Shown: piece after piece, positions 1,995 to 64,000 of the stretch
How the letters are laid out: every line of letters begins with the position of its first letter
Numbering within the stretch: the first letter of the stretch is position 1
Source: a virus
Length of the DNA stretch: 64,000 bases
Direction: 5' to 3' (one strand)
IMG/VR virus record: IMGVR_UViG_3300013737_000003
Made by a program: the position numbers and the translations under genes
Notes under the pieces: generated by a model
Told to the model about the DNA's origin: nothing
Database searches by the model: none
The model's input: the letters and a program-made list of their open reading frames with translations, nothing else

Positions 1995-3642
1995 CCCAAA
2001 CCTTGCTATTGGCCAGAAAGTCAGATTCGGTTGGTCTAAGCCGGACAAGCCGGATGCGAAGTGCTCATACGGCACCATCACAGGCATCTATGTCGACCCG
2101 GATGATGGTGTGAGTTACACCGTCAAGGAAGACTACAAACGAACCCGAAACACGATGGACACCGAGAAGTTGAAACTCGTGAGGGGGCCTATTACTCTGC
2201 ATGAATCCAAGGTGCGAGCCGACAACATCTATGTTGGTAAGCGAGTGGTGGCAAACTGGCCGGAGAAGAAGTGCTCTCGCATCGTCCGCGTCTACTGGTG
2301 GTACGACAACCATGTGCTGGTTGGGCCAGAGGACGTCGTCACAGACAAGCCACAAGCATACCAAATTGTCGATCGATCACAGCTCGAAGACCATAACCTC
2401 GTGTCGGTTCCTCCGGATCACCTCCTGTACGCCGGGATCATCTCCGCATTCGAGCTGATGTGCCAGTATGGTCTGGTCGGGTCAGAGAAGCTGGAGGACG
2501 TTGTTGAGGTTGTTAAAGCCTGTGGGACCAACGGTGCTCGTCGCGCCCTCAAGCAGTATGCTGCCAACAAAGGCTATGGTGCGTCACATACTCTGGCCGA
2601 AGCAATAAGGACAGAGCAGTGGGAGGCATCGAAGATACACACGATGGAAGTGCCGAACACGGCTGCTGAGAACGTGAAGCGATCCGGGGACATCGAGCAC
2701 GAAGCGACCAAGCAGCGGCCTGTACCTCTGCTGGGAGTATGTAACCTGCTCGGTGTTCCTGCCGGGATGTCTGGACTGACGACTCTTGAATTCAGGGTTG
2801 AGAACGGTCGGGTGCGTGAAGAAACTATCGACCTTTGCCACAAGCCTGATCCAATCAAACAGGGAGATGCCGTTGCGGTATCTCCTGATGGGAAGCCGCA
2901 TAAGATGAACCGAGATCGCGTTGAACAGGTCGCTAAAAAGATCGGTGTTCCTGTGGACGTTATCATAAACAGTGATGTAGTCACTATAATCAAGGAAAAC
3001 GTCGTCGTCTCTCAGACTACAGATCAGTTCATCTCTACCTTCGACTTCGAGACAAGACCTCCTTTGAACCCCTGCCAAGGGTACTCCAACATGACTGCGT
3101 CTGAGGCACAGGAGTTCATCAAAAGGAATGGAGGGGATACCTTCCCGGATGAGACCAAGGTCGCCTGTGGCGGTCCTCTTGTCTCTGCGAGTGTGGTGAA
3201 GGAGAAGGATGATCAGATCACTTGTTTAGTGTCTGTGATCCGAGCGAAGAATGAGCGGTTGGCCCAGCAGGGAGAGAAGATCAGTCGCCTCAACCGCGAA
3301 CTGAAAGCCGCAAAAGCACTCATCAACCCTTCGCCCGGCAGTGTTGTGACGACGGTCAACGAAGTCATCACTACTCACAACAAAATGATGCGGCTGCAAA
3401 CCGAGGTTGAACGACTGGAACATGTCGAGCGAAACAATCTGGCGTCGATTGATGCTGCTCACAAAAGAGAGAGTCGTGCTGTGGCCGAAGCAGACGCGGC
3501 GAGGAAGGAACTCCAGATTCACAAGAACCATGTCGCTCAGTTGAAAAAGGACCTTGCTGCAAAAGAGCAACAACTGACTGGTGTGCAGAGGCGACTCGAC
3601 ACGCTGGTCATGAACATCCAGAACCAGGTGAACAAGGACTGA
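1981..3642 (+). CDS. Hypothetical protein with C-terminal coiled coil
   Basis: Long ORF; GTG 1981 preceded by GGAGAAGAG; C-terminal heptads. Confidence 0.65.
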   Translation: MTKSNPNLAIGQKVRFGWSKPDKPDAKCSYGTITGIYVDPDDGVSYTVKEDYKRTRNTMDTEKLKLVRGPITLHESKVRADNIYVGKRVVANWPEKKCSRIVRVYWWYDNHVLVGPEDVVTDKPQAYQIVDRSQLEDHNLVSVPPDHLLYAGIISAFELMCQYGLVGSEKLEDVVEVVKACGTNGARRALKQYAANKGYGASHTLAEAIRTEQWEASKIHTMEVPNTAAENVKRSGDIEHEATKQRPVPLLGVCNLLGVPAGMSGLTTLEFRVENGRVREETIDLCHKPDPIKQGDAVAVSPDGKPHKMNRDRVEQVAKKIGVPVDVIINSDVVTIIKENVVVSQTTDQFISTFDFETRPPLNPCQGYSNMTASEAQEFIKRNGGDTFPDETKVACGGPLVSASVVKEKDDQITCLVSVIRAKNERLAQQGEKISRLNRELKAAKALINPSPGSVVTTVNEVITTHNKMMRLQTEVERLEHVERNNLASIDAAHKRESRAVAEADAARKELQIHKNHVAQLKKDLAAKEQQLTGVQRRLDTLVMNIQNQVNKD

Positions 3643-3646
3643 TACC

Positions 3647-4288
3647 GTGGTATCAAAGATACGAGTGTTGGTGGCGTGTGAATGCTCCGGCGTTGTTCGC
3701 CGGGCATTTAACCGGCATCCGGATGTAGACTGCTGGTCGAGCGATGTCAAACCGGCTGAAGACAACGACCCCCGTCATCTGAAGGGGGATGTGCGTCAGT
3801 GGCTGGACGATACTGCCTGGGACCTGATCATCGCCCATCCGGAGTGCCGGTTTCTCTGTTCGAGCGGTATCTTCCGTAACAAGAACGATCCAGCTCGGCA
3901 GGCGAAGACTGAGGAAGCCTACGAGTTCTTCATGACGTTCGCCCGGCTAAGATGCAGGTATTGCATCGAGAACCCGGTCGGGATCGTCAGCACCCGCTGG
4001 CGCAAGCCCGATCAAGTGATCCAGCCCTACCATTTCGGTGAGCCGGATTCGAAGAAGACCTGCCTGTGGTTGCAGGGCGTCCCTCTCCTGAGAGGGACGA
4101 AGTTCCATTTACCAGACCGCTGGATCGACGGGAAGCCCCGCTGGCGCAATCAGACGGACGCGGGGCAGAACAAGCTGCCCCCGGGCGTCGAACGCTCTGC
4201 AAAGCGTGCCAGAACGTATCCGGGCATCGCTGAGGCGATGGCCGACCAGTGGTTACCTGTCATTCGAAAAGAGAAAGGGATGATGTGA
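3647..4288 (+). CDS. Phage DNA cytosine methyltransferase-like protein
   Basis: N-terminal VLVACECSGVVRRAF, WDLIIAHPEC (catalytic P-x-C-like), IENPVG and KKTCLWL motifs typical of this small phage MTase family. Confidence 0.7.
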   Translation: MVSKIRVLVACECSGVVRRAFNRHPDVDCWSSDVKPAEDNDPRHLKGDVRQWLDDTAWDLIIAHPECRFLCSSGIFRNKNDPARQAKTEEAYEFFMTFARLRCRYCIENPVGIVSTRWRKPDQVIQPYHFGEPDSKKTCLWLQGVPLLRGTKFHLPDRWIDGKPRWRNQTDAGQNKLPPGVERSAKRARTYPGIAEAMADQWLPVIRKEKGMM

Positions 4289-7776: not shown

Positions 7777-7791
7777 TGACAGATTTTGTCA
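7777..7791. promoter_or_regulatory. 15-bp palindromic operator-like site, copy 1 (TGACAGATTTTGTCA)
   Basis: Matches four other intergenic sites; exact reverse complement of the copy at 8322. Confidence 0.75.
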
Positions 7792-58092: not shown

Positions 58093-58333
58093 TGTCACTC
58101 CTCTGGGTGTTTGGGTAAGGAGGGTTCTCGAACGTCACCTCGTCATTGAGATAGACACGGATACGAGGACCACCATCATCTTCCGGTAAGTTCAAAGTAT
58201 CCACGTTTACAACCACTGTATGGTCGACAGGGCTTTTGCTTACCAGAATTTCGAGGTTTTGTTCGTCGCTCATTTCAATAGTGATGCTTACGAAACCATC
58301 TAGGTCATCAGGCAAAACCAATACTTGTCCCAC
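58079..58333 (-). CDS. Acidic hypothetical protein
   Basis: GAGGAG upstream. Confidence 0.6.
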   Translation of the reverse strand: MGQVLVLPDDLDGFVSITIEMSDEQNLEILVSKSPVDHTVVVNVDTLNLPEDDGGPRIRVYLNDEVTFENPPYPNTQRSDNADP

Positions 58334-58366
58334 GTAGTTACTCCTCTGTGTTACGGATAAGCCAAC

Positions 58367-58393
58367 GCTGCTCAGCCGGTGAGACTGAGCAGC
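58367..58393. other. Intergenic 9-bp hairpin GCTGCTCAG-N9-CTGAGCAGC
   Basis: Directly visible between genes. Confidence 0.7.
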
Positions 58394-58402
58394 CTTGGGT
58401 CA

Positions 58403-59179
58403 TCAGTAGTTCTGAACAAGATTGCTGAGGTGATCGATGTCGCTGGCGGACAGGAGTGATTTCAGCTTCTTGCCGATCTCGTCACACGCTCGATAGACCG
58501 CTTCGGCCTTGCGGCTGTCCGTGTCATACCCGAACTCAGCAGCCCAATCCTCGAAGGTTGTTTCTGCGGCACGAGCATCCATCAGCAAACAGGACAAAGC
58601 ATCGGCAGCGGACACGCCTTCGCCATACCCTTGACGAGACAGGAATTGGCGGGCGGCTTTCACTCCTTTCTCTTTGGCGATCGCTTCTGCAGTATTGACG
58701 CCGCTACGGTGGGATCGCGTGGCCAGTTCAGAGAAGTCGCTCACGTAGAGGAAGTCGTGCGTGAAATGGAACCCGGTGAGTTTCATCAGGTCACGACCGC
58801 CTTGCCGGGATCGATTGATCCACGCCAGCAACTTGTCAAAAGCCACCCCGTTCTTCCGAACGTTCTCAGCAGTGCCGTACATCCCCTGCGAGTAACACGT
58901 CCTCGGTGCGTAGGCAATGCCCTGCCCGTAAGACGTCTCGAACAGCACGCGGTCCTTGCGGGAGAACCGCAGGGTGAACTGGATCGGCATCCCCTCCTCT
59001 TCGGTGTCGTACGGTCGCTTCAGATTGTAAACGAGCGCTCGGTACAGTTGCTCGCCGTCCAGACCACTGGGGTTCTGCACATACGAGAACTCGATACCCT
59101 TCTCAGTCAGAAACTTGTCAACAGCAATCTCGATGTCAAGGCTGTCTGTCAGCTCGACGGGTTTTGTTTGTTTGGTCAT
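58403..59179 (-). CDS. Hypothetical protein
   Basis: C-terminal LSCLLMDA...TFEDWAAEFGYDTDSRKA motif common in phage early proteins. Confidence 0.7.
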   Translation of the reverse strand: MTKQTKPVELTDSLDIEIAVDKFLTEKGIEFSYVQNPSGLDGEQLYRALVYNLKRPYDTEEEGMPIQFTLRFSRKDRVLFETSYGQGIAYAPRTCYSQGMYGTAENVRKNGVAFDKLLAWINRSRQGGRDLMKLTGFHFTHDFLYVSDFSELATRSHRSGVNTAEAIAKEKGVKAARQFLSRQGYGEGVSAADALSCLLMDARAAETTFEDWAAEFGYDTDSRKAEAVYRACDEIGKKLKSLLSASDIDHLSNLVQNY

Positions 59180-59203
59180 GGACGTCACTCCTCAGGGTTT
59201 GTT

Positions 59204-59269
59204 GAAAGAACTCATTTGACGAGCCGGTCGACCCGACCCGTCTATCAATCCTCGCAAGCGACCTGCTTA
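59204..59269 (-). repeat. Conserved intergenic hairpin element, copy 2
   Basis: AAGCAGGTCGCTTGCGAGGATTGATAGACGGGTCGG-GTCGA-CCGGCTCGTCAAATGAGTTCTTTC. Confidence 0.9.
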
Positions 59270-59671
59270 TTACTCCTCTTCTGCATAGATAGGGGCTTCG
59301 TACTTGATTGACTTGAGACCCTGAAGAAGAATGCCCTTCTCCTGAATCGCTTTACACATCGCGAGGTACAGATCATTGGCGTCGACCGTCGCTCGAATGG
59401 TGTGACCATGCTCATTCGTGCCGACGACCTGCCAACTGTGTCCCACGATGAACAGCTTTCTCGGTGGCCAGTATCGGCGAGGCTGCACGACCTCGACGAT
59501 CTGCCATCCCGGCAGCTCCAGAACGTATTTCTCCTTCTTGGCTCGCATGTCGGCATCGTTGACCGCATAGTCGAGGTGAGTATGCCGACCGTTGTTGACG
59601 TTGGGGTGTCGCTTGAACAACTGGTACTTCTGGCCGGGGATCGGCCTGAGTTCTTTCTTTGGTGATGCCAT
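59270..59671 (-). CDS. Hypothetical protein
   Basis: GAGGAGTGAC-ATG start. Confidence 0.65.
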   Translation of the reverse strand: MASPKKELRPIPGQKYQLFKRHPNVNNGRHTHLDYAVNDADMRAKKEKYVLELPGWQIVEVVQPRRYWPPRKLFIVGHSWQVVGTNEHGHTIRATVDANDLYLAMCKAIQEKGILLQGLKSIKYEAPIYAEEE

Positions 59672-59689
59672 GTCACTCCTCCGGAAAAA

Positions 59690-59758
59690 CCAGTGAAACC
59701 AGACAGATACTATGCGAGGAGTGACAGACTCGCACAGCCACCTGTCTGGCTTCACTGG
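59690..59758 (-). promoter_or_regulatory. Long intergenic hairpin whose loop is complementary to the downstream RBS
   Basis: CCAGTGAA-CCAGACAG / CTGTCTGG-TTCACTGG outer stem; 59716-59726 is the exact complement of 59671-59681. Confidence 0.7.
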
Positions 59759-59806
59759 TGTTTCAGAAAGGGAGCAGACCCCCGCTGCTCATATCGGGTC
59801 GGCGTG

Positions 59807-60472
59807 TCAGCCGTAGAAGTAAACCTCTTTGACTCGCTTGCCGTCCTCATCTTCTTCCCACAAGACTTCCATATCCACGGTGCTGAAGGATTTGGAAATC
59901 TTGGTCAACTCATCGCCATGCTCCCAGTCACCATCCCAGAAACCAGCTCCCTGCCCCTGGCGAGTGAAGCAGAAGTCAGTCCCAGCTTCCTCCAGTCTCG
60001 CTTCGACCTCCTCAATCACTGCCTGTGGCTGCTGATCGAGCAGGTAGAAGAACCCTTCGATGTCCGACCAAATATGGAGCAGGTCGACGTCGGCAATAAC
60101 GTCTTCAATTTCTGCCCACACATCCCAGTTCTCATCGAAATCGCCAGAACACTCGAAGGCTGGTTCGTCGTAATCGCGTTCGAGGGTTCGGGCGATTTCC
60201 ACGATCGAATGGCCTGTGAACCCAAGGGCTTGAATATACCCTCGGAAGAACTTAGCGTTCGTACTACTCTTCATCTTGTCGATGTGGACACTACGCCCAG
60301 TGTGGCATGTCACCGACTCGATGGTACTCACAGGGCATCGCATCGTATCGACTGCCGTGTGTATGGCTCCTGAGACGTCAGAGGACCACACTTCGGTCGT
60401 GGTGCGTTGCTGGGTGACCCAGTCGAGGGACACCACACGCCAACGAAACATATCAGGTCTGTTCACTGTCAT
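59807..60472 (-). CDS. Acidic hypothetical protein
   Basis: GGAGAGTGACAG-ATG; DFCFTRQGQGAGFWDGDW motif. Confidence 0.7.
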   Translation of the reverse strand: MTVNRPDMFRWRVVSLDWVTQQRTTTEVWSSDVSGAIHTAVDTMRCPVSTIESVTCHTGRSVHIDKMKSSTNAKFFRGYIQALGFTGHSIVEIARTLERDYDEPAFECSGDFDENWDVWAEIEDVIADVDLLHIWSDIEGFFYLLDQQPQAVIEEVEARLEEAGTDFCFTRQGQGAGFWDGDWEHGDELTKISKSFSTVDMEVLWEEDEDGKRVKEVYFYG

Positions 60473-60475
60473 CTG

Positions 60476-60697
60476 TCACTCTCCTGTCATTTGATAGAAA
60501 ACAACCTTGGCTTGATCCTCGGGCAGTCCTCGCTTCCTGAGTTCATTCATCAAATCAGGGTTTCGATTTGATAAACTGAACATCCAACAACTCTCGCCGT
60601 CTCGCAGTTCGAACACATCAAATCGGTGGACCATTGGCTTTCTGGAAAATTCCGAGATCGCCTTGCGAGCGTAGTATGTGGGCTGTGTGTTGAGCAT
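60476..60697 (-). CDS. Hypothetical protein
   Basis: GAGGAGTGAC-ATG. Confidence 0.65.
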   Translation of the reverse strand: MLNTQPTYYARKAISEFSRKPMVHRFDVFELRDGESCWMFSLSNRNPDLMNELRKRGLPEDQAKVVFYQMTGE

Positions 60698-60698
60698 G

Positions 60699-61040
60699 TC
60701 ACTCCTCTTTCTCGAAGAACATCATGTCGATCACTACGCTGCAGATAGGGAACGCTTTCTTCCGATGACTCAGTTTGGACACGTAACCGCGTTCCGGGTC
60801 GTTGCTGGTCACCACCTCGAAACGGCGAGTTGCAAGAGCCGCATCGACATAGGGTCTGAACGGTTCACCTACTTCACTCAGCAGGGTGACTGCCGCCGAC
60901 CAATCAACATCCCAGTTCTCCACATCACCGACCATAAAGTCAGTCAGTGACTCGTAGTATGCGTAATACTCAGCATACTGGAACTTGGCAACTCCTTGTT
61001 CGTCTGTTGTGATTCGGACTCGAATGCACTTCATGTTCAT
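60699..61040 (-). CDS. Hypothetical protein
   Basis: GGAGAGTGAC-ATG. Confidence 0.65.
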   Translation of the reverse strand: MNMKCIRVRITTDEQGVAKFQYAEYYAYYESLTDFMVGDVENWDVDWSAAVTLLSEVGEPFRPYVDAALATRRFEVVTSNDPERGYVSKLSHRKKAFPICSVVIDMMFFEKEE

Positions 61041-61051
61041 GTCACTCTCCA

Positions 61052-61117
61052 GAAAGAAATCATTTGACGAGTCGGTTGACCCGGCTCGTCTATCATTTCT
61101 TGCCAGCGACCTGCTTA
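61052..61117 (-). repeat. Conserved intergenic hairpin element, copy 3
   Basis: Same flanks; stem GACGAGCCGG/CCGACTCGTC. Confidence 0.9.
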
Positions 61118-61771
61118 TTACTTCTCGCGATCCATAAACTCAGGGAACGGAATCTCTTTCTCAGTGAAGAAGAAAACCTGCCCTTCGTTGTGATCGACCA
61201 GTTCGAAGTCCCATTTCAGGTCACCACGTTTGATGCCGTAGTGCTTTGTGAGCCGTTCAAGCATCTTGCCGACTTTGGCAGGCAGAGCATTACCAGCAGG
61301 AACCCAGGCACCGTAGTACATCCACTTCAGCTTGATGTACATGGTGAATCGCTGATGGCCAGTGCCGTCGCATGAATTACAGGTGAAACTATGCTCGTCA
61401 CGCTGTCTGTCCGCCCATGCAGACCCCGGCTTGGTCAGCGCGGCTTTACACTCTTCGACTGACTCCTGTCGGATCGCAGCGACATCAGCATATGTCCGAT
61501 AGCCGACACCCTTGCACTGAGCACACAGCGGTTGCCAGTCTGGTGGCGGAACCACAGGAGTCCGATCAAACACACCGATCTCACTCAGTTCGATCGGCGT
61601 TGACTCAGGATACGCCCAATGAGGCGGTTTTGAATCGCCCGGTGTGAGCTGATCTGGCCGACCGGCTCCGATGTCGTGTGATTTCCACACTTTGACACCG
61701 CGACCATCCTTGACCCACGACAGGACTTTGTGTGCCTCACTGAGAGGCACGTGGAACTTGAACTCAGGCAT
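61118..61771 (-). CDS. Hypothetical protein with a DnaJ-type CxxCxGxG zinc finger
   Basis: CAQCKGVG and CNSCDGTG motifs. Confidence 0.7.
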   Translation of the reverse strand: MPEFKFHVPLSEAHKVLSWVKDGRGVKVWKSHDIGAGRPDQLTPGDSKPPHWAYPESTPIELSEIGVFDRTPVVPPPDWQPLCAQCKGVGYRTYADVAAIRQESVEECKAALTKPGSAWADRQRDEHSFTCNSCDGTGHQRFTMYIKLKWMYYGAWVPAGNALPAKVGKMLERLTKHYGIKRGDLKWDFELVDHNEGQVFFFTEKEIPFPEFMDREK

Positions 61772-61795
61772 TGGTTGTCACTCCAACAGGGTTTC

Positions 61796-61860
61796 GAAAG
61801 AACTCATTCGACGAGTCGGTTGACCCGGCTCGTCTATCAGTTCTCGCAAGCGACCTGCTT
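61796..61860 (-). repeat. Conserved intergenic hairpin element, copy 4
   Basis: Near-identical to copy 3. Confidence 0.9.
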
Positions 61861-61861
61861 G

Positions 61862-62506
61862 TTATCCCTTCGCTACCTTTCTTGTAACAACTTCGAACTC
61901 CTGCAACTCTTCTCGCTCATTATCCTCTTCAGTGGGAGGATAAAGTTGGTACAGGAATTCCCAAGCATCTTCGAACGTCTTGAATTCTTTGTCCGGCCAG
62001 GGCTTGTTACCAGCCCAGTCCTCAATGACATACACGTCGATAGTGTCGCCACCGTCAACCGTGTGCCCGCATGACTCGCAGATCGTGTCGTGCCAGTCTA
62101 CATCCTCAATGCGAGGGGTGAAATGACCACAGTAACCACACCGATGAGTATTTGTGTCCTCCTGATAGTCCAGTTCGGCCTCCTCCTGCCAGTCGCCCCA
62201 GCAACCGATGTGGAACTGCTCGGACTGGCCATCCCAGATGATTGTTGCGGCGTACGTGTCTCCCCCATTGAGATACATGCATGATCGATGATCGCGACTC
62301 ATGAAATCATTGTCGGGGATACTGTTGCCCTCAACACCGAATGTTCCGTTTTCGCCACGCTTGCGAAGGTACTCTTCGGCTTTCAGCAACGCATCACTGG
62401 CATGATGAGACGGGTGGAATGACCCGTAGACATCCTCACGCTTCAGGCGACGAAACTCCCGCCGCGCCACCTTGAGAGCCCGTTCCCAGATTTCTTCGCT
62501 GTTCAT
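61862..62506 (-). CDS. Hypothetical protein with a Zn ribbon
   Basis: CGYCG...CESCG motifs. Confidence 0.65.
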   Translation of the reverse strand: MNSEEIWERALKVARREFRRLKREDVYGSFHPSHHASDALLKAEEYLRKRGENGTFGVEGNSIPDNDFMSRDHRSCMYLNGGDTYAATIIWDGQSEQFHIGCWGDWQEEAELDYQEDTNTHRCGYCGHFTPRIEDVDWHDTICESCGHTVDGGDTIDVYVIEDWAGNKPWPDKEFKTFEDAWEFLYQLYPPTEEDNEREELQEFEVVTRKVAKG

Positions 62507-62774
62507 GATGTTTCTCCAGCATAAAAATAGTTTTCGCTCGTGCCTCTGTCTGATTCCAGATCGCACAGTTCTTCTTGATCCGTTTGGTGCGGCAAGAAAA
62601 ACGATGACTGACCTCCATGCTTGTCATCTTGCCTTCAGCATCCAGCCACGCTGAAGTCGTCCAGTTGTCTGTGGTGTAGCAATCGATTTTGTGGATGACA
62701 CATCCACCGTTCGGGAACCAGTGAAATTGGTAATGCTCCCGATTGCATGCTGCTCTGTTGATGGGCCTTTTCAT
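62436..62774 (-). CDS. Hypothetical protein
   Basis: AAGGAGTGACAA-ATG. Confidence 0.6.
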   Translation of the reverse strand: MKRPINRAACNREHYQFHWFPNGGCVIHKIDCYTTDNWTTSAWLDAEGKMTSMEVSHRFSCRTKRIKKNCAIWNQTEARAKTIFMLEKHHEQRRNLGTGSQGGAAGVSSPEA

Positions 62775-62786
62775 TTGTCACTCCTT

Positions 62787-62852
62787 GAAAGAACTCACTG
62801 GATGTGCCGGTGTGACCCGGCACATCTGTCAATCCTTGCAAGCGACCTGCTT
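62787..62852 (-). repeat. Conserved intergenic hairpin element, copy 5
   Basis: Same flanks; covaried stem GATGTGCCGG/CCGGCACATC. Confidence 0.9.
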
Positions 62853-63493
62853 TAGATTTGATAGTCTACTACTTTTGCGAGATGAGCAGCGATGGCTTTC
62901 GCCGTTCTAATAGCTTCCTGCTTGCAATACTCATCACCATAGAAGCCCCAGCAACTACCCAGCTCGTTGCCGTCTTTGTCTTCGATCACATAGCCCCACA
63001 CATCATGCGTGAGCCATTTATCATACACCTCGACTTCAGCGACCAACATCTTCTCGCACTGTTGGTACAGCGTGAGCCCTGTCGGTTCGTAGATGTCAGT
63101 CCAGTTCTCCAACCCATACTCTTTGCGGGCTTTCTCCAAAGAGACGCAGATGAACCCGACAGGGCCGGAATCCCATCTGCACCCGAATGAACCGGTGCTC
63201 ATCGAGAGACCACTGTGATCCATGAGGTACAACCGCATCTCACAGTAGTGCTTTTCTTTCCACTGCATGATGTTCTGGGCTGAGATGCTCTCCAGAACGT
63301 TTGGGTGCATCTCCTGCATCTTGTGCCACCACCATTCAACCGCTGTCTCCTTTGGTTGTTCATCACCAAGAGTGTACCTGCGATGCCAGCACACCATCGT
63401 CCCGAGGCTGTCACAATACTTGCGAGGATTGCAAGGGTCCGGATCAGGCTCAATCCGCACTGTCAGACCATCAACTTCGAACTCGTCGCTCAT
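62852..63493 (-). CDS. Hypothetical phage protein
   Basis: LYLMDHSGLSMST...WDSGPVGFI...SCWGFYG motifs seen in phage early genes. Confidence 0.7.
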   Translation of the reverse strand: MSDEFEVDGLTVRIEPDPDPCNPRKYCDSLGTMVCWHRRYTLGDEQPKETAVEWWWHKMQEMHPNVLESISAQNIMQWKEKHYCEMRLYLMDHSGLSMSTGSFGCRWDSGPVGFICVSLEKARKEYGLENWTDIYEPTGLTLYQQCEKMLVAEVEVYDKWLTHDVWGYVIEDKDGNELGSCWGFYGDEYCKQEAIRTAKAIAAHLAKVVDYQI

Positions 63494-63505
63494 TCTGTCA
63501 CTCCT

Positions 63506-63580
63506 GAAAAGACCTGTGTGAGATCAACGCAGCACACCGTTGCCAGTGTGCTGACTTGATACCACGCAGCGACCTGCTTA
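63506..63580 (-). repeat. Conserved intergenic hairpin element, copy 6 (divergent stem)
   Basis: TAAGCAGGTCGC leader and TCTTTTC tail with a different stem (CAGCACAC/GTGTGCTG). Confidence 0.75.
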
Positions 63581-63970
63581 TTACTTCACAACTCGGTACA
63601 CCTTGCGACGGTATCGAGCGGAAACCTCCCGCTTGGTCAGTGTCAGTGGGTAGTGGTCGAACTCACGCCATCCGTAATATGCGGCGACAGCTCGGTACGC
63701 TTCATACCGTTTGAGAGCATCATCACTGCAGAAGCACTCGATGATCTCTTTCACTTTCCAGTCAACGCACAAACAAATTTGATTCAGTTCGTTGGCATAC
63801 CACACTTGGTGATCAGGGTGGAACCGATTGGCGCTGAGAATGCCCTTGATGTACGTATGAGGCCCCAGCACAACGCGGTAGACGGTGTACGGCTCTTTCG
63901 AGTCGTCACTGTCAGGGCACTCCAGAATCTCGACCTCAGGAGGATAGACGCCCGTCTCATCGACGAACAC
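63581..63970 (-). CDS. Hypothetical protein (start uncertain, may lie near or beyond the window edge)
   Basis: ORF whose stop abuts element copy 6. Confidence 0.6.
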   Translation of the reverse strand: MFVDETGVYPPEVEILECPDSDDSKEPYTVYRVVLGPHTYIKGILSANRFHPDHQVWYANELNQICLCVDWKVKEIIECFCSDDALKRYEAYRAVAAYYGWREFDHYPLTLTKREVSARYRRKVYRVVK

Positions 63971-64000
63971 CCATGCACCACCATACTCTGTCGGGCTCGC

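Follow-up and report, generated by a model that had tools for sequence, protein, structure and literature searches.

In the operators of E. coli rpsO and phage T4 gene 32, a hairpin loop base-pairs with single-stranded mRNA further downstream, in or close to the RBS. In the early region of phage T7, Dunn and Studier reportedly described RNase III hairpins between early genes, which extend over about two helical turns or more and contain an internal defect. The T7 gene 1.2 is said to be regulated through its processed 3′ end, as Saito and Richardson reportedly found in 1981, and processing can reportedly change the access to a nearby RBS. The c4 RNA of P1 and P7 carries loops whose sequences are complementary to the ribosome-binding region of a downstream gene encoded in the same operon, and it blocks translation (PMC12197685). 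In the icaR mRNA of S. aureus and the hbs mRNA of B. subtilis, an anti-SD sequence within a 3′ structure pairs over a long range with the SD and controls both translation and RNase attack (PMC3868564, PMC5737220). Intrinsic terminators typically have a stem of 7–9 bp and a loop of 3–5 nt, and a 15-bp stem already ranks as extraordinary; TerR of plasmid pLS20 owes its resistance to processive antitermination to its long stem (PMC10325885).

Here we describe a long hairpin in the leader of g9, a gene of an uncultured tailed phage, and compare it with these systems. Like c4, the leader is a structured RNA in the same operon as its putative target, with RBS-complementary sequence in its loop. However, c4 arises by processing, measures ~77 nt, and adopts a tRNA-like fold in which two loops are complementary to the target, whereas the element here is a single 30-bp rod, and the two have no sequence or Rfam relation. 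The likeness to icaR and hbs lies in the full 10-nt loop, which is complementary to the initiation region of g8, the gene upstream; unlike icaR and hbs, the leader stays with the downstream gene g9, and the close relative L002 does not keep the 10-nt match to g8. The T7 RNase III sites are likewise long intercistronic hairpins with an internal defect, but they are not known to have a loop complementary to an initiation region. The rpsO and T4 gene 32 stems are short and can be spanned by the connecting loops, in contrast to a 30-bp stem and a linker of 8–11 nt here. With TerR, the leader shares an unusually long stem flanked by an A-tract and a U-tract; the TerR stem is 15 bp and its loop 7 nt, versus 30 bp and 10 nt in the leader, where the U-tract is missing in the distant relatives L050 and L051. 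The leader would work most like the terminator, c4, icaR/hbs, and T7 cases, yet it is a member of none of them.

Phage early operons abound in intergenic hairpins, which tend to be dismissed as terminators, whereas the g9 leader is a distinct conserved RNA with strong covariation and without an Rfam family. If its loop pairs with initiation regions, the leader would provide a compact, RNA-only control of one gene or of a whole early-gene set. P1 c4 and P22 sar are among the few phage examples known so far, to which the leader would then be added, and it would offer a design for synthetic translational control. The repeated extended SD motif of the surrounding genes would in that case look like a regulatory address, beyond being a strong RBS.

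Genomic Context of the Leader

The 64,000-nucleotide stretch of DNA analysed here (the window) derives from an uncultured tailed phage and encodes a large terminase, PolA, and helicases. The best identity of its PolA to that of any cultured phage is 34%, and blastn detected no DNA match to the window among cultured phages. Small genes with unassigned functions are tightly packed on the minus strand between ~57.4 and 64 kb, and we refer to this array as the cluster. The hairpin sits between two of these genes:

60472–59807, minus strand: g8, 221 aa, the gene upstream of the hairpin
59671–59270, minus strand: g9, encoding a 133-aa protein of unassigned function, downstream of the hairpin

The g9 protein showed no Pfam match and one weak match to an unnamed PHROG. 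Its AlphaFold model is fairly confident (pLDDT 85), with no meaningful match in the PDB. For g8, the protein database holds a 155-aa version that starts at 60274; the start at 60472, which yields 221 aa, is favoured by the presence of the cluster RBS motif at this position and by a 220-aa homologue in L002.

Nearly every gap between the cluster genes contains a long hairpin, downstream of which lie a pyrimidine tract and a common RBS motif. The eight intergenic hairpins of the cluster comprise 17 G-U pairs on the sense strand versus 4 on the antisense strand, and this excess indicates that they are RNA structures of the sense transcript. A long sense-strand hairpin was also found in nearly every intergenic gap of the relatives L032 and L045–L048. 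Relatives encoding a g8-like protein have one long hairpin per gap as well, but their loops do not match their RBSs.

An extended RBS motif, GGAG(AG)TGAC, is present at 9 of the ~11 cluster genes (58093–63504, minus strand), while no real gene in the rest of the window carries it. As the motif stands anywhere from 0 to 5 nt ahead of the start codon, it is more than an SD plus a spacer. At the junctions 60697 and 58092, the TGA of the motif is the stop codon of the upstream gene.

Structure of the Hairpin and the Leader

On the minus-strand RNA, positions 59758–59690 form a 69-nt hairpin of 30 bp that contains a single bulge, four G-U pairs, and a loop of 10 nt. The elements of the leader between g8 and g9 are as follows, in the 5′ to 3′ direction:

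59809–59807, minus strand: UGA stop codon of g8, read from the sequence
59805–59797, minus strand: single-stranded leader motif ACGCCGACC, invariant in the window, L002, and L051, and present in L050
59790–59772, minus strand: small hairpin P1, in which GAGCAG (59790–59785) pairs with CUGCUC (59777–59772)
59784–59778, minus strand: G-rich loop of P1, CGGGGGU, with a conserved loop sequence
59779–59766, minus strand: upstream segment (GUCUGCUCC..UUC), overlapping the 3′ arm of P1 and acting as the pairing partner of the RBS in the MFE fold
59758–59739 with 59709–59690, minus strand: lower stem of P2, 20 bp, from fold prediction
G59738, minus strand: bulge of P2, from fold prediction
59737–59729 with 59718–59710, minus strand: upper stem of P2, 9 bp, from fold prediction
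59728–59719, minus strand: apical loop UCUGUCACUC, 10 nt, with a GUCAC core kept in all three lineages
59726–59716, minus strand: anti-RBS 11-mer UGUCACUCCUC, composed of 8 loop and 3 stem nucleotides
59689–59685, minus strand: U5 tract directly after the stem, in the window lineage only
59682–59669, minus strand: g9 initiation region, GGAGGAGUGAC plus AUG, identical in L001 and L002
59682–59676, minus strand: SD, GGAGGAG, read from the sequence
59671, minus strand: AUG of g9, read from the sequence

In a comparison with 200 shuffled sequences, the hairpin had a z score of −6.6 and none of the 200 folded as well. The fold is strand-specific, with −53.0 kcal/mol and four G-U pairs for the minus-strand RNA versus −40.6 kcal/mol and no G-U pair for the plus strand; on the opposite strand, the four G-U pairs would be A-C mismatches. 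The apical loop is predicted to be unpaired.

In the MFE fold of the window, the RBS is paired with the segment 59779–59766, which extends the rod to ~46 bp, and U5 is paired with GAAA (59764–59761) within it. The predicted P(unpaired) of the SD is accordingly low (0–0.02), and freeing the RBS would cost 6.9 kcal/mol. L050 and L051 do not share this RBS pairing: in the predictions, the SD is open in L050 and has another partner in L051.

Searches against Rfam gave no matches over the whole 64 kb at the gathering score, and none at the hairpin site when 57300–64000 was searched at E values up to 5. The possibility that the hairpin is a 5′ extension of g9 from a GUG at 59755 was rejected, as this codon has no upstream SD; the nucleotide conservation, which is uniform and lacks a three-base coding rhythm, also speaks against it.

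Conservation and Covariation

Among 5.8 billion proteins, only two close homologues of g9 were detected, both on short Logan contigs: L001, with 95% amino-acid identity, and L002, with 77%. IMG/VR contained no relatives of g8 or g9 and no leader motifs, and the GTDB genomes contained no relatives. The intergenic region is identical to that of L002 at 129 of 135 positions (95.6%), versus 77.0% and 78.4% for the flanking coding sequences. Three of the six changes fall at or beside the bulge (59738, 59710, and 59709), and the change at 59771 keeps the predicted pair. No variation was observed in the stems, loop, U5, or RBS, which indicates strong constraint but provides no covariation at the depth of close relatives.

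An exhaustive HMMER search identified two further g9 homologues, with 37% and 30% identities, on the contigs L050 and L051, respectively. Both contigs carry a homologous leader directly upstream of g9, while L052, which encodes a distant g9 fragment homologue, is without it. The g9 gene of L050 starts at a GUG inside the conserved GUGACA. A 45-aa ORF called at L050:425–562 overlaps the leader RNA; we judged it spurious and probably not a gene.

A covariance model, R1, was built from the window, L001, and L002. It matched L050 (48.7 bits, E 6e-10) and L051 (47.1 bits, E 1.6e-9) over the full model length. Over 107 kb including the rest of the window, R1 found nothing further apart from antisense self-matches of the palindrome, and the window holds one copy. 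In the R1 alignment, which is itself fitted to the structure, 36 of 37 pairs in L050 and 35 of 37 in L051 are canonical in register, as compared with 8–16 when the 3′ partner is slid by 1–3 columns, and 18 (L050) and 15 (L051) of 40 pairs are changed on both sides yet kept. In P1, one A-U pair of the window is replaced by G-C in L050 and L051, representing a compensatory change. The column identity was 65–67% for unpaired positions versus 41–52% for paired ones. An attempted MAFFT-based consensus fold misaligned the diverged stems and was replaced by the covariance-model alignment.

The leader has the same order in all lineages: the stop codon, ACGCCGACC, a 6-bp hairpin with a G-rich loop, a pyrimidine-rich linker, and the rod. 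The conserved rod comprises ~33–35 bp, with a 5′-side defect located 7–9 bp below the apex; this defect is a single G in the window, 6–7 nt in L050, and 10 nt in L051. The conserved loop of 9–10 nt is closed by GAG/CUC and contains GUCAC, and a strong SD follows 0–8 nt past the foot of the rod. The U-tract is present in the window, L001, and L002 and absent in L050 and L051. At the 5′ border of the element in L050 and L051, a GUGAC-like motif flanks it and overlaps the upstream stop codon. The genes upstream of the leader in L050 and L051 are 67% identical to each other and unrelated to g8, and this difference in the upstream gene indicates that the leader element belongs to g9.

Judged from its conservation and covariation, the hairpin is a real structure, around which a conserved and structured 5′ leader RNA of g9 is built. 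By the same comparative evidence, the leader is a new small RNA family without an Rfam match, represented by five copies (the window, L001, L002, L050, and L051) in three lineages.

Complementarity of the Loop to Initiation Regions

The initial annotation described a ~69-nt minus-strand hairpin followed by TTTTT, with an apex complementary to the RBS of the next gene, and both the sequence and the predicted folds agree with this description. The apical sequence UGUCACUCCUC (59726–59716) is the exact reverse complement of GAGGAGUGACA (59681–59671) over 11 nt. The annotation took the loop itself to be an exact 11-nt anti-RBS; the length of the match stands, but only 8 of the nucleotides belong to the unpaired loop, and the other 3 form the top of the 3′ arm.

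In a comparison of 25 hairpin-plus-RBS modules, drawn from this phage and from relatives, the window and L002 had the longest match of an apex to an initiation region, at 11 nt; the remaining modules had matches of 2–6 nt, with one of 8 nt. Analytically, the chance of an 11-mer match is ~2e-5 per module. When the loop nucleotides alone were scored by energy against shuffled or random loops, the values were less extreme (p ~0.01–0.045). A pyrimidine-rich loop pairs to some extent with any purine-rich SD.

We then scanned the window with the 10-nt loop against 302 SD-bearing candidate starts, and the nine best real genes were all located in the cluster. Nine cluster initiation regions match the loop over at least 8 nt, at −11 kcal/mol or better. 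The entire 10-nt loop is complementary to the starts at 60472 (g8) and 63493, at −16.2 kcal/mol; the 10-nt match to the g8 start is not kept in L002. For real genes elsewhere in the window, the loop pairing was −8.8 kcal/mol or weaker, with none reaching 8 nt. This distribution fits the earlier suggestion that the loop could pair in trans with other initiation regions. The 9-mer GGAGTGACA occurs at six gene starts, all within 58.1–63.5 kb, and once in the inverted orientation at the hairpin apex.

In L051, the loop CUUGUCACC has an exact 8-nt match to its own RBS, GGAGGUGACAAUG, at GGUGACAA. Relative to the window, both the loop and its RBS partner have changed, and the stems have fully diverged. 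The position beside the shared core is U:A in the window and C:G in L051, and an extra A in the RBS spacer of L051 faces an extra U in the loop. The loop-only duplexes had energies of −11.7 and −11.6 kcal/mol for the cognate combinations versus −8.4 to −9.7 kcal/mol for the non-cognate ones. The loop nucleotides alone were used because cross-pairing of the 17-nt apical segments, which was discarded, is uninformative: the stem nucleotides add spurious pairs.

The L050 loop is identical to the window loop over GUCACUCCUC. It matches its own g9 initiation region over only 6 nt, which cover the GUG start codon, and it pairs better with the window RBS than with its own g9 RBS. Matches of 9 and 10 nt were observed at two other initiation regions of the same contig. 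The local extended SD motif is GAGUGAC in the window and L050, and GGUGAC in L051; the loop of each genome thus appears to follow the extended SD motif used there. Complementarity extends to the RBS spacer ACA/ACAA, which the canonical 16S tail would not pair. The loops look like mRNA complements rather than rRNA mimics; the tail used for this comparison was the textbook sequence and may differ from that of the host.

The energy-based p values range from 0.003 to 0.045 per lineage, with the lineages not being independent. The complementarity looks selected, on evidence that is suggestive and short of conclusive. The loop–RBS link drawn in the earlier interpretation persists in L051 with changes on both partners, although the g9 protein of L051 is only 30% identical to that of the window. 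The case for selection is limited to three independent lineages and essentially one clean compensatory loop–RBS position.

Proposed Function and Alternative Explanations

From the structure, its conservation and covariation, the complementarity, and the link to g9, we infer the following functional steps. The loop would display an anti-initiation sequence with a GUCAC core, which tracks the extended SD motif of its own genome, and would base-pair with initiation regions and thereby repress translation. The targets would be the g9 initiation region itself and, probably, those of nearby genes of the cluster with the same GAGUGAC. Loop and target would pair between molecules, or over a long range within the polycistronic mRNA, and not in a compact pseudoknot. 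The rod has sufficient length to serve as a substrate of RNase III and as a 3′-end stabiliser, and U5, in the window lineage only, may add leaky intrinsic termination.

A functional pairing of the loop with initiation regions, most plausibly intermolecular or long-range, is moderately supported. The fuller proposal, in which the conserved g9 leader represses translation because its loop pairs with initiation regions between molecules or over a long range, is one that we advance tentatively, at somewhat less than an even chance. As expected for an anti-SD regulatory RNA, the loop is predicted to be unpaired and is complementary to RBSs, at nine regions. The repression reading is weakened by L050, where the region of g9 itself matches the loop at 6 nt only. 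The stoichiometry of one hairpin per transcript versus up to nine targets would also be unfavourable, unless the hairpin outlives the mRNA. An extended form of the proposal addresses the cluster as a whole: either RNase III, cutting in the lower stem, or termination at U5 would free the rod from the early polycistronic mRNA, and this very stable small hairpin RNA would titrate the initiation regions of ~nine early genes, acting as a timer of early-gene shut-off. The loop would then resemble the 16S anti-SD tail while fitting the extended SD motif of the phage, GAGUGACA, more closely, and the hairpin would accumulate and outlive the mRNA, turning early-gene translation off. We consider this timer improbable.

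The initial annotation instead envisaged an H-type pseudoknot or a conformational switch that couples termination with translation initiation, i.e., cis pairing of the loop with the adjacent RBS. The exact 11-nt complement lies 34 nt from its partner, is kept in L001 and L002, and recurs in a changed form in L051, so the downstream complementarity of an H-type pseudoknot is present. The connecting loop is too short, however. By a geometric argument from the coordinates, the linker of 8–11 nt reaches at most ~55–75 Å, while the stem of 27–30 bp that it must span measures ~76–84 Å. Melting of the basal 8–10 bp would cost 16.2–21.5 kcal/mol, more than the −11.5 kcal/mol gained by loop–RBS pairing; the full 11-pair duplex would yield −19.3 kcal/mol, but it needs the top of the stem to be melted as well. 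The switch is disfavoured by the alternative anti-RBS:RBS hairpin, which lies 25.6 kcal/mol above the MFE. The order of synthesis also speaks against the cis model, with the hairpin being complete before the RBS is transcribed. The coupling to termination is not supported either. The RBS lies 3′ of the U-tract and is transcribed after it, and therefore cannot affect termination, and the lack of the U-tract in L050 and L051 suggests that termination is not the conserved role. Moreover, the 30-bp stem and 10-nt loop fall outside the geometry of intrinsic terminators (5–14 bp stem, 3–8 nt loop), and a terminator consensus scan of the window did not list the hairpin site. A fold-back at the helix defect could, in principle, join the loop and the RBS in cis. 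The large defect in L050 and L051 might act as a hinge that folds the apical domain to the foot of the rod, which makes this more plausible there than in the window, where the hinge would be a single bulged G. On these energy and distance estimates, cis loop–RBS pairing is disfavoured, and we regard both the compact pseudoknot and the switch between a terminator hairpin and an anti-RBS:RBS hairpin as very unlikely.

Processing of the rod by RNase III could reasonably accompany the proposed repression or take its place. As the sole role, it would make the element a T7-early-like RNase III site or a 3′-end stabiliser, acting in the window lineage also as a leaky terminator, with a functionless loop match. 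The features of RNase III sites (~20 bp or more, an internal defect, and an intercistronic location) are seen here as 30 bp plus a bulge, with the defect at the same place in all lineages. The stem of 30–35 bp greatly exceeds the 7–9 bp norm of terminators (PMC10325885) and is long enough for RNase III. The long sense-strand hairpins in nearly every gap of the cluster and in L032 and L045–L048, as well as the U5 after the stem in the window, are also consistent with such a role. However, conservation is higher in the loop and the remaining unpaired parts than in the stems, which is not what a pure dsRNA substrate predicts. In addition, the loop follows the RBS motif of its lineage, and the 11-nt match is an outlier among the 25 modules. 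Processing or stability as the only function is thus, in our estimation, rather unlikely, although it retains an appreciable chance. A signal or by-product at the DNA level has a slim chance. In this case, the apex would be an inverted copy of GGAGTGACA generated by recombination or template switching, or a site for a dsDNA-binding protein. The six GGAGTGACA copies at cluster gene starts with one inverted at the apex are compatible with such an origin, as are the GUGAC-like motif over the upstream stop codon at the 5′ border of the element in L050 and L051, and the apical TGACAGA, a sequence that forms the half-site of five 15-bp palindromes at other places in the phage. Nevertheless, the G-U pairs make the stem strand-specific, suggesting that it acts at the RNA level; no full palindrome is present at or near the site; and the loop has diverged along with the RBS motif of its lineage, rather than being a frozen copy.

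Other Repeated Elements

The five 15-bp palindromes, TGACA-N5-TGTCA, are located at 7777, 8322, 46252, 56308, and 57693, versus 0.09 expected by chance. The half-site TGACAGA is found at the hairpin apex and also in the RBS at 63493. These palindromes are real, but none lies at the hairpin, and the idea of a DNA operator at this site was rejected. A 54-aa ORF at 57503–57667 on the minus strand lies downstream of a promoter-like site and the palindrome at 57693. Its product has a lysine-, alanine-, and proline-rich tail that resembles histone H1 or other nucleoid proteins.

A metagenome scan for the 11-mer inverted pair returned 10 loci, all of which are unrelated long palindromic repeats and not homologues of the leader. 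The inverted pair forms the inner ends of palindromic repeats in L037, L039, L041, and L044 (assembly JAABUQ01) and in L038, L042, and L043. The repeats of this set recur several times in two other metagenome assemblies and look MITE- or REP-like.

Six exact copies of AAGCAGGTCGCT are present on the minus strand of the window, each right after a stop codon, at 57490, 59268, 61116, 61860, 62852, and 63579. In five of the six, the motif is followed by a covarying hairpin and then GAGTTCTTTC (57423–63580). Homologous copies of this six-copy element, with AAGCAGGTCGG, were identified in L050 and L051. A 16-mer of the element had 29 single matches in IMG/VR, a number consistent with chance. The g9 hairpin is not a copy of this element, and the g9 leader lacks the 5′ motif AAGCAGGTCGCT.

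Two more long sense-strand hairpins of 22–23 bp occupy gaps on the minus strand, at 63514–63569 and 58352–58408, and belong to neither the six-copy family nor the g9 leader family. In L032, the loop CAAAGAUC of a hairpin at 3635–3712 is exactly complementary, over 8 nt, to the tract immediately before the next SD. This represents a second, independent loop-to-leader match, with a chance of ~3% across the modules examined.
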